Below are positions 34,211 through 35,367 of a stretch of DNA of 64,000 nucleotides, piece after piece. The position numbers and the translations under genes were made by a program. The notes below the pieces were generated by a model. The model was not told where the DNA came from. It made no database searches and saw nothing but the letters and a program-made list of their open reading frames with translations. Positions within the stretch are counted from its first letter, which is position 1, and each line of letters opens with the position of its first letter. The DNA lies in the NCBI GenBank assembly GCA_005223125.1, contig NJBH01000017.1:1-64000 (forward strand). The letters run 5' to 3'. The stretch is from Promethearchaeota archaeon Loki_b32 (GTDB taxonomy: Archaea; Asgardarchaeota; Lokiarchaeia; Sigyniarchaeales; SOKP01).

Positions 34211-34834
34211 ATGAAACCATGGTTATTTGACATATTAGCATGTCCTATTGATAAACAATTTCCATTAAAATTATATATTTTTTCTTTTGAAAATAAACCA
34301 GAAGAATTTCAATCTATTATTGATATTTATAAAAACAGAGATATCAACATTATTAAAAAAGAAAAAATAATTGAGGTTTTTCAAGAAAATGACGAATATT
34401 TCTTAAGGGATAACATAGTCATTGAAAAAACCAAACTTAAATCCTATCTTGAGTTAATAATTTCGAGTATAAATGAATTTGAAAATGTCTTTAATAATTC
34501 TACAAACCAATTGAGTAAAAAAAGTTTTCAAATCATAAATTCTGAAGTTAAATCTAAAATTTTAGAACTTTTTAAAGATTTAAAATTCCATCATATTGAA
34601 GATATATTTCCTGAGTTATATTTTATAAATAAAGTAAAATTAGACATTGAAATTGAATCAGGTATATTATTTTGCAGCAAATGTAACCGTTGGTATCCTA
34701 TTATAGATACAATTCCACAGATGCTCCCTGATAAGTATCGTGATGAAAGAAAAGAAATTGAATTCCTTGAAAGCAATAAAAATTTATTAGATGAAAAATT
34801 TTTTAATCAAGATCTTAAACCATTTAATATTTAA
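34211..34834 (+). CDS. trm112: Trm112-like methyltransferase activator with a long central insertion
   Basis: MKPWLFDILACPIDK ... IESGILFCSKCNRWYPIIDTIPQML. Confidence 0.8.
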   Translation: MKPWLFDILACPIDKQFPLKLYIFSFENKPEEFQSIIDIYKNRDINIIKKEKIIEVFQENDEYFLRDNIVIEKTKLKSYLELIISSINEFENVFNNSTNQLSKKSFQIINSEVKSKILELFKDLKFHHIEDIFPELYFINKVKLDIEIESGILFCSKCNRWYPIIDTIPQMLPDKYRDERKEIEFLESNKNLLDEKFFNQDLKPFNI

Positions 34835-34881
34835 GAATTAAATAACATAAAATCTATGAACTGTTTCAAATACAAACTCTT

Positions 34882-35013
34882 AGCCCGGTGGTGTAGATTA
34901 ATACATATATTATGTATTGAGTAAATTGGCCAAGCATTTGGGGCTTTGAACCCCGCGACCACGGTTCGAATATTAAAAAGGTTTCTGATTAATCGAAATT
35001 CCGTGCCGGGCTA
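34882..35013 (+). tRNA. tRNA-Gln(UUG) with two non-canonical introns (34897..34926 at 15/16; 34971..34999 at 59/60)
   Basis: Acceptor stem AGCCCGG/CCGGGCT plus discriminator A; anticodon arm TGGGG-CTTTGAA-CCCCG; T arm CACGG-TTCGAAT-CCGTG. Removing the 30-nt and 29-nt inserts gives a 73-nt cloverleaf. CCA is not encoded. Confidence 0.9.
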
Positions 35014-35367
35014 TTATTTTTAATAATACTACTTAAAAAAATTTTTCAATTGCCGGTATTTTTAATTTTTTCTTTTTGACTAAAAATTAAAAGTCATCAA
35101 TTCAAGACTGATAATAATCTTGGTTATATCAATCTTTTTTATTTCGGAAGAGATAAAAATATAATTTTTGTTTAAAAAACGCTATTTTGTCACTGTTTGA
35201 TTATTTAAAAATTTTAAAATTAACTCAATTCTTAATTTGTATTTATCATTTGATTATAAAAAATTTTAAATAAATCAAAAAAACCGAAATTTATCTATAA
35301 TAAGAAGAAAGATTTATTTGTCTTGTAAGTAAAATACTATTTAATTAAAATTAAAGAAAAGATTACA

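Follow-up and report, generated by a model that had tools for sequence, protein, structure and literature searches.

The 132 nucleotides at positions 34882-35013 of the window, by which we mean the whole 64,000-nucleotide stretch of Promethearchaeota archaeon Loki_b32 DNA that we analysed, very probably constitute, as judged from sequence comparison, a functional tRNA-Gln(UUG) gene with two non-canonical introns, one at 15/16 in the D-loop and the other at 59/60 in the T-loop. A single gene here combines a strict bulge-helix-bulge (BHB) motif in the T-loop with a relaxed motif in the D-loop. We could validate both by comparison with related species, and link them to genes for a splicing endonuclease (EndA) that has a Lys/Arg loop.

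Gene anatomy and detection

The gene lies on the forward strand in an intergenic gap, the preceding open reading frame ending at 34834. Exon 1 (34882-34896, 15 nucleotides, tRNA positions 1-15) supplies the 5' strand of the acceptor stem, U8, G9, the 5' strand of the D-stem (GUGU), A14 and G15. It is followed by intron 1 (34897-34926, 30 nucleotides), which interrupts the D-loop at 15/16 and presents a relaxed HBh'-type motif. Exon 2 (34927-34970, 44 nucleotides, positions 16-59) comprises the remaining D-arm, the anticodon arm with its loop CUUUGAA and anticodon UUG, a variable loop of four nucleotides, the 5' strand of the T-stem and the T-loop bases UUCGAA. After intron 2 (34971-34999, 29 nucleotides, at 59/60), associated with a strict hBHBh' motif, exon 3 (35000-35013, 14 nucleotides, positions 60-73) completes the molecule with U60, the 3' strands of the T-stem and acceptor stem, and the discriminator A73. 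CCA is not encoded. A T-rich tract, TTATTTTT (35014-35021, forward strand), abuts the discriminator and is a probable transcription stop.

When both introns are taken out and the three exons joined, ARAGORN recognises a 73-nucleotide tRNA-Gln(ttg) with a regular cloverleaf, a 7-bp acceptor stem, a 7-nucleotide anticodon loop and the T-loop UUCGAAU. The G+C content of this spliced tRNA is 63%, against 29.9% for the genome. Removing intron 1 alone yielded no tRNA with ARAGORN, and removing either single intron yielded none with ARAGORN in compact mode without intron search. On the unspliced DNA, ARAGORN found no tRNA in the 64-kb window and Rfam none at its gathering score; even at E<=10, the region 34780-35120 gave Rfam no tRNA signal, just chance snoRNA-like matches. 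The original prediction, made from the letters alone, had placed here a tRNA-Gln gene with this anticodon and these two intron positions, and had expected a normal 73-nucleotide tRNA once both introns were cut out. The sequence is as quoted there, and the ARAGORN call on the spliced product confirms these points. It had also supposed that standard scans might overlook the gene, which proved true of this locus and extends to orthologues with a single intron, missed by both ARAGORN and Rfam.

Splicing motifs

Both introns were scored with our own BHB scanner, which reads on the 5' strand an outer helix h, a central helix H of four nucleotides, a bulge NN^N and an inner helix h', and on the 3' strand h', H, a bulge NN^N and h. 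Intron 2 scores H 4/4, h 5 and h' 5. Its outer helix is the T-stem itself (CACGG/CCGUG), its central helix joins the T-loop bases UUCG to CGAA in the intron, its bulges are AA^U and AU^U, and the intron hairpin begins with its inner helix, AUUAA/UUAAU. This is the textbook bulge-helix-bulge that had been claimed; it is present in the minimum-energy fold of the precursor, and 12 distinct relatives retain the strict hBHBh' motif. Motifs that qualify as strict (H=4, h>=4, h'>=4, with G+C-rich flanks and lengths of 11 to 200 nucleotides) number 311 genome-wide among about 1.6 billion position-length combinations. Given this rarity, a perfect motif exactly at the boundary that restores a tRNA is not due to chance.

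The canonical archaeal intron at 37/38 was reportedly described by Marck and Grosjean in 2003 as residing in an hBHBh' motif. Intron 2 has the same geometry, with a 5-bp stem, the first four loop bases paired to the intron, two 3-nucleotide bulges cut after their second base, and a hairpin. It differs in being built on the T-arm (positions 49-65) instead of the anticodon arm, and in being cut at 59/60.

Intron 1 scores H 3/4, h 0 and h' at least 6. Its hairpin comprises 10 bp (34898-34907 with 34911-34920), and GUAA at 34921-34924 lies opposite the D-stem GUGU (34891-34894). Three of the four central positions pair (U11-A, G12.U and U13.G, two of them G.U), and G10 faces an A as a mismatch. 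The bulges are AG^A and AU^U. We looked for an outer helix in the BHB register and found none. With no outer helix and one mismatch, intron 1 falls outside the strict hBHBh' definition; its H of 3/4, h of 0, 10-bp h' and constant spacing place it in the relaxed HBh'/BHL class. A relaxed BHB with a 10-bp hairpin and a weak central helix is what the original prediction had drawn, and both our scan and the covariation described below uphold it.

The pre-tRNA folds better than 200 of 200 shuffled sequences (z = -2.7). In the minimum-energy fold, the weak central helix of intron 1 is omitted and bases 8-11 pair instead with the start of exon 2. This alternative pairing, of UGGU (precursor bases 8-11) with GCCA, puts intron 1 inside a 5x8 internal loop and is a competitor of the weak central helix that the relaxed motif relies on. 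The helix 8-11/48-51 of this fold was considered as an outer helix for intron 1 and rejected, as it clashes with the central helix.

Orthologous genes and their introns

Our DNA search covered 40 relatives and found the tRNA-Gln(UUG) locus throughout the genus, in about 25 species. We fetched 19 loci (L004-L022) with 1.5-kb flanks and, with short flanks only, the intron-less locus of one species (G018). The window and all 19 loci share a common upstream flank, which establishes that they are orthologous. Across the genus, the gene carries from zero to three introns, in six arrangements. There is no intron in G018, a D-loop intron alone in three species (G012, G006 and G009), and a T-loop intron alone in four (G002, G024, G019 and G004). 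The D and T introns occur together in the window, in G005, in G013 and in a second copy in G004. In 11 species, the D intron is accompanied by a 30-nucleotide intron at the border of the variable loop and the T-stem (hereafter V). All three introns are found in G001 (L022, on contig C259), where the gene spans 161 nucleotides. The 19 loci fetched cover the T, D, D+T, D+V and D+V+T states. Intron 1 is absent at the orthologous locus from the four T-only species and G018, and intron 2 is absent from the three D-only species, the D+V species and G018.

Where an intron is missing, the gene reads GTGTAG|TGGCC at the first site and TTCGAA|TCCGTG at the second (the bar marks the junction). The two splice junctions foreseen by the original prediction therefore match what is read in relatives from which one or both introns are missing. 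At intron 1, GTGTAG|TGGCC cannot be obtained by moving the two cuts together. For intron 2, a shift of one nucleotide would give an identical product, and it is the BHB rule that sets the cut at 59/60. Intron-less homologues in G018, of the same genus, and in G031 and G036 score 56-61 bits with the Rfam tRNA model (cut-off 29) and are identified as tRNA-Gln(ttg) by ARAGORN; they differ from the spliced 73-mer at roughly 9-17 of its 73 positions.

Exons and introns evolve very differently, the former being nearly invariant across relatives and the latter diverging. Among the UUG genes of the genus, exon 1 differs in 2 of 19 rows, and two rows from CUG genes also differ at position 6; exon 3 is nearly invariant. 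In the hairpin of intron 1, nine of the ten pairs show compensatory changes on both sides. Pairing is found in 84.6% of alignment cells, against 26-55% when the partners are slid, and none of 500 shuffles reaches the observed score. In the central helix of intron 1, 20-21 of 21 sequences retain the three inner pairs by way of one-sided changes, and 17 of 21 leave the outermost pair open. Invariably, 6 nucleotides separate the end of the hairpin from the 3' cut, as a measuring endonuclease requires. For intron 2, pairing in h and H is intact in 98-100% of cells, and compensatory changes occur at five pairs of h'.

Is intron 1 actually removed at 15/16? Its central helix has three of four pairs and no outer helix, and the minimum-energy fold uses a different pairing, so that the motif might be thought too weak. 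Intron 1 of an otherwise real gene could then be cut at other bonds, removed without EndA, or kept as an enlarged D-loop. Goswami et al. indeed point out that some D-arm insertions have no canonical motif and may not all be introns (2026, bioRxiv 10.64898/2026.10.13.758758). We nevertheless regard such a fate as unlikely, given that orthologues without the insert show exactly the junction that shifted cuts cannot produce, and that both the hairpin and its fixed 6-nucleotide distance to the 3' site are conserved. A 30-nucleotide insert ahead of G18/G19 is also expected to disturb the contact between D-loop and T-loop, which counts against a retained insert. Moreover, the EndA of A. pernix, which has the same loop as the enzyme encoded here, cuts both D-loop BHB introns and relaxed BHL introns (PMC3241643). 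Excision at 15/16 is thus the reading that we retain for intron 1.

A tree built from 1.4 kb of flanking DNA nests the window and G005, both with D and T introns, in the D+V clade, adjoining the three-intron G001. Taken tentatively, as it comes from one short flank, this nesting implies that the lineage lost the V intron and retained or regained the T intron. It is conceivable, although we lean somewhat against it, that endonuclease-type introns of about 30 nucleotides are gained and lost at species-level timescales, perhaps as a mobile class. Were this true, the arrival and departure of such introns could be followed at this locus as in a compact natural series.

The tRNA gene set of the genome

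The assembly is a metagenome-assembled genome (MAG) of 71 contigs, 95.5% complete and with an estimated contamination of 4.6%. A UUG anticodon arm in a tRNA-like context occurs once in this 95.5%-complete assembly, at 34882-35013. The original prediction had called for a check on whether another tRNA-Gln(UUG) gene exists in the genome; our tRNA scan, DNA search and anticodon-arm search of the same assembly found no second copy. The sole relative of the gene in this genome is a tRNA-Gln(CUG) on contig C22, which has an intron in the anticodon loop and another at 59/60. CAA represents 81% of Gln codons in 963 long open frames.

The Rfam tRNA model passes 21 genes in the genome, and ARAGORN in intron mode makes 23 calls, several of them doubtful. 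With so few genes passing Rfam and a tRNA-Gln(UUG) that is invisible to it, it follows that annotation badly underestimates the tRNA sets of Loki-type Asgard MAGs if non-canonical introns are not looked for. In the present case, the tRNA for 81% of Gln codons escapes both Rfam and ARAGORN, and ARAGORN misses most of the tRNA set. Our own tRNA scan, which combines an acceptor stem with a BHB motif, is blind to acceptor-stem introns, introns longer than 200 nucleotides and split genes, and its list is accordingly incomplete. It retrieved about ten tRNA genes with introns of 29-30 nucleotides at 59/60 (Gln-CUG, Pro-GGG, Pro-UGG, Arg-CCU, Ser-GCU, Ser-UGA, Ser-GGA, Lys-CUU, Asn-GUU and Gln-UUG itself). 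Several genes have D-arm introns, including Val-GAC at 15/16.

A decaying pseudogene would provide another explanation for the interrupted locus: the insertions would never be removed, and CAA would be read by another tRNA-Gln(UUG) missing from the assembly. A 71-contig MAG at 95.5% completeness leaves some room for such a gene, as do the many tRNAs still unaccounted for after our scan. However, this explanation is very improbable in view of the exons that stay almost invariant in about 25 species while the introns diverge, and of the intron helices that evolve through compensatory change. In each relative, the interrupted gene is the only UUG copy found, and a pseudogene would not be expected to keep a perfect BHB. 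We consider the locus to be a working gene on these grounds. The idea that G+C-rich fragments assemble into a cloverleaf by chance, prompted by a tRNA that appears only after hand editing of the sequence, has a negligible probability: it is refuted by the orthologue junctions and by intron-less orthologues that are bona fide tRNAs, and also conflicts with the conservation of the locus across the genus and the great rarity of strict BHB motifs.

Several other features of the tRNA set emerged from these scans. There are 26 strict BHB motifs of 25-35 nucleotides in the genome, most of them outside the tRNA genes found by our scan. A search for tRNAs in G+C islands returned 8427 islands and was dropped as too unspecific. 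Many tRNA-Gln genes of the genus and order have C instead of U at position 33 (L004, L007, L012, L018, L019, L078, L084, and C22:33806-33935(-) in this genome), the loop being CCUUGAA in the tRNA-Gln(UUG) of several species and CCCUGAA in the tRNA-Gln(CUG) of this genome. U33 is near-universal in tRNAs. Base 33 is the only difference between the exons of G005 and those of the window.

The two highest-scoring uninterrupted tRNAs of the assembly are an intron-less tRNA-Ile(GAU) and tRNA-Ala(UGC), 3 nucleotides apart at C68:23146-23294(-). Adjacent tRNA-Ile and tRNA-Ala genes are typical of the bacterial rRNA spacer, and the pair is possibly a contamination. Finally, a class II-like tRNA at C48:118160-118320(-) has an insert of 78-80 nucleotides at the anticodon loop and, according to the splice register, UUA or UUU as its anticodon.

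Splicing enzymes and a proposed pathway

The genome encodes two EndA paralogues of about 200 amino acids at separate loci, one catalytic and one structural. The alpha paralogue (contig C18, 202 amino acids) is nearest to the catalytic alpha subunit of A. pernix (3p1z_B, E 2.4e-35) and keeps the catalytic His, in GLEHS. Its insert has conserved Lys and Arg residues: SKPR aligns to EKPR of 3p1z_B, the Lys and Arg matching K44 and R46 of the Crenarchaea-specific loop (CSL/L1). The beta paralogue (contig C2, 205 amino acids) has neither the loop insert nor a His at the catalytic site. These features point to an (alpha-beta)2 architecture, and we infer that the two subunits would assemble as such a heterotetramer. 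In A. pernix, the (alpha-beta)2 EndA was shown biochemically to cut non-canonical and relaxed introns, an ability over D-loop BHB and relaxed BHL introns that is conferred by K44 and the loop (PMC3241643). Asgard archaea were already described as having an (alpha-beta)2 EndA with the L1 insert (Kaneta et al. 2018, PMC5829648). The original prediction had proposed to look into the subunit architecture and supposed that the EndA of this organism accepts relaxed substrates; judging by homology, a broad-specificity enzyme of this kind fits the subunits encoded here. The genome also encodes RtcB.

The following pathway may be proposed, which builds on the anatomy of the sequence, on a mature form deduced from intron-less orthologues, on an intron evolution that preserves structure and on the presence of the enzymes. 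The single-copy gene would be transcribed as a 132-nucleotide precursor body with two endonuclease-type introns. In the T-arm, a perfect bulge-helix-bulge would be made up of the T-stem, a helix in which the T-loop pairs with the intron through its first four bases, and the intron hairpin. In the D-arm, two cut sites would be presented in a relaxed motif by the intron hairpin together with a weak helix of 3 bp, in which D-stem bases 11-13 pair with the intron. The heterotetrameric (alpha-beta)2 endonuclease, with its L1/CSL loop, would cut two nucleotides into each 3-nucleotide bulge; RtcB would then join the three exons into the 73-nucleotide tRNA, and CCA would be added after ligation. What we presume from the genes and motifs at hand is transcription, cleavage at exactly these bonds, ligation, the order of both splicing events and the processing of this precursor by EndA and RtcB.

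Comparison with known systems

Multi-intron tRNA genes with introns at non-canonical positions are already known from Asgard archaea (Valentin-Alvarado et al. 2024, PMC11291895). Goswami et al. (2026, bioRxiv 10.64898/2026.10.13.758758) reported that annotators miss D-arm introns, that T-arm introns are mostly canonical BHBs, that introns were gained repeatedly and that genomes commonly have two EndA paralogues. The present gene resembles these published tRNAs in having several short BHB-type introns at non-canonical positions in a genome with a two-paralogue EndA, with T-arm motifs that are mostly strong and D-arm motifs that are often weak and missed by annotators, and with introns gained and lost between close relatives. 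Because such genes had already been published (PMC11291895; bioRxiv 10.64898/2026.10.13.758758), the feature is less unusual than the original prediction judged, and the known working of such introns is unchanged by this locus. Published Asgard studies centre on Atabeyarchaeia, Freyrarchaeaceae and Jordiarchaeaceae, whereas we describe a Promethearchaeota genus with six states at one locus; neither Lokiarchaeia nor Promethearchaeia is named in the text of the preprint (bioRxiv 10.64898/2026.10.13.758758). What is new here is the extension to a Promethearchaeota (Lokiarchaeia-type) genus and a series of six intron states at one orthologous gene, where intron turnover appears to be rapid.

Non-canonical tRNA introns in Thermoproteales and other Crenarchaeota are the subject, reportedly, of work by Sugahara et al. 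in 2008. As in these organisms, for instance in the D-loop intron of A. pernix tRNA-Thr(UGU), the introns described here occur in the D- and T-arms with BHB or relaxed motifs (Hirata et al. 2011, PMC3241643). The enzyme that cuts Crenarchaeota introns is an (alpha-beta)2 EndA, which owes its broad specificity to the CSL Lys, and the EndA genes found here are comparable. Unlike the crenarchaeal cases, ours belongs to a different phylum and differs in lifestyle and base composition, the genome being mesophilic-looking with 30% G+C.

In Thermoproteales, moreover, many introns belong to sequence families that extend over several tRNA types, whereas we found one such pair here. Among the other tRNA introns of the genome, the two Gln(UUG) introns have no close copies, and we rejected the idea that they derive from such introns, as their best identities (0.67-0.70) stay below the shuffled maximum of 0.77. 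The pair that stands out consists of the 30-nucleotide introns at 59/60 of two adjacent genes on the reverse strand, tRNA-Ser(UGA) (C4:18432-18562) and tRNA-Lys(CUU) (C4:18289-18391), which are 83% identical against a shuffled maximum of 77%. This cross-isotype likeness between sequences suggests copying or conversion between adjacent tRNA genes.
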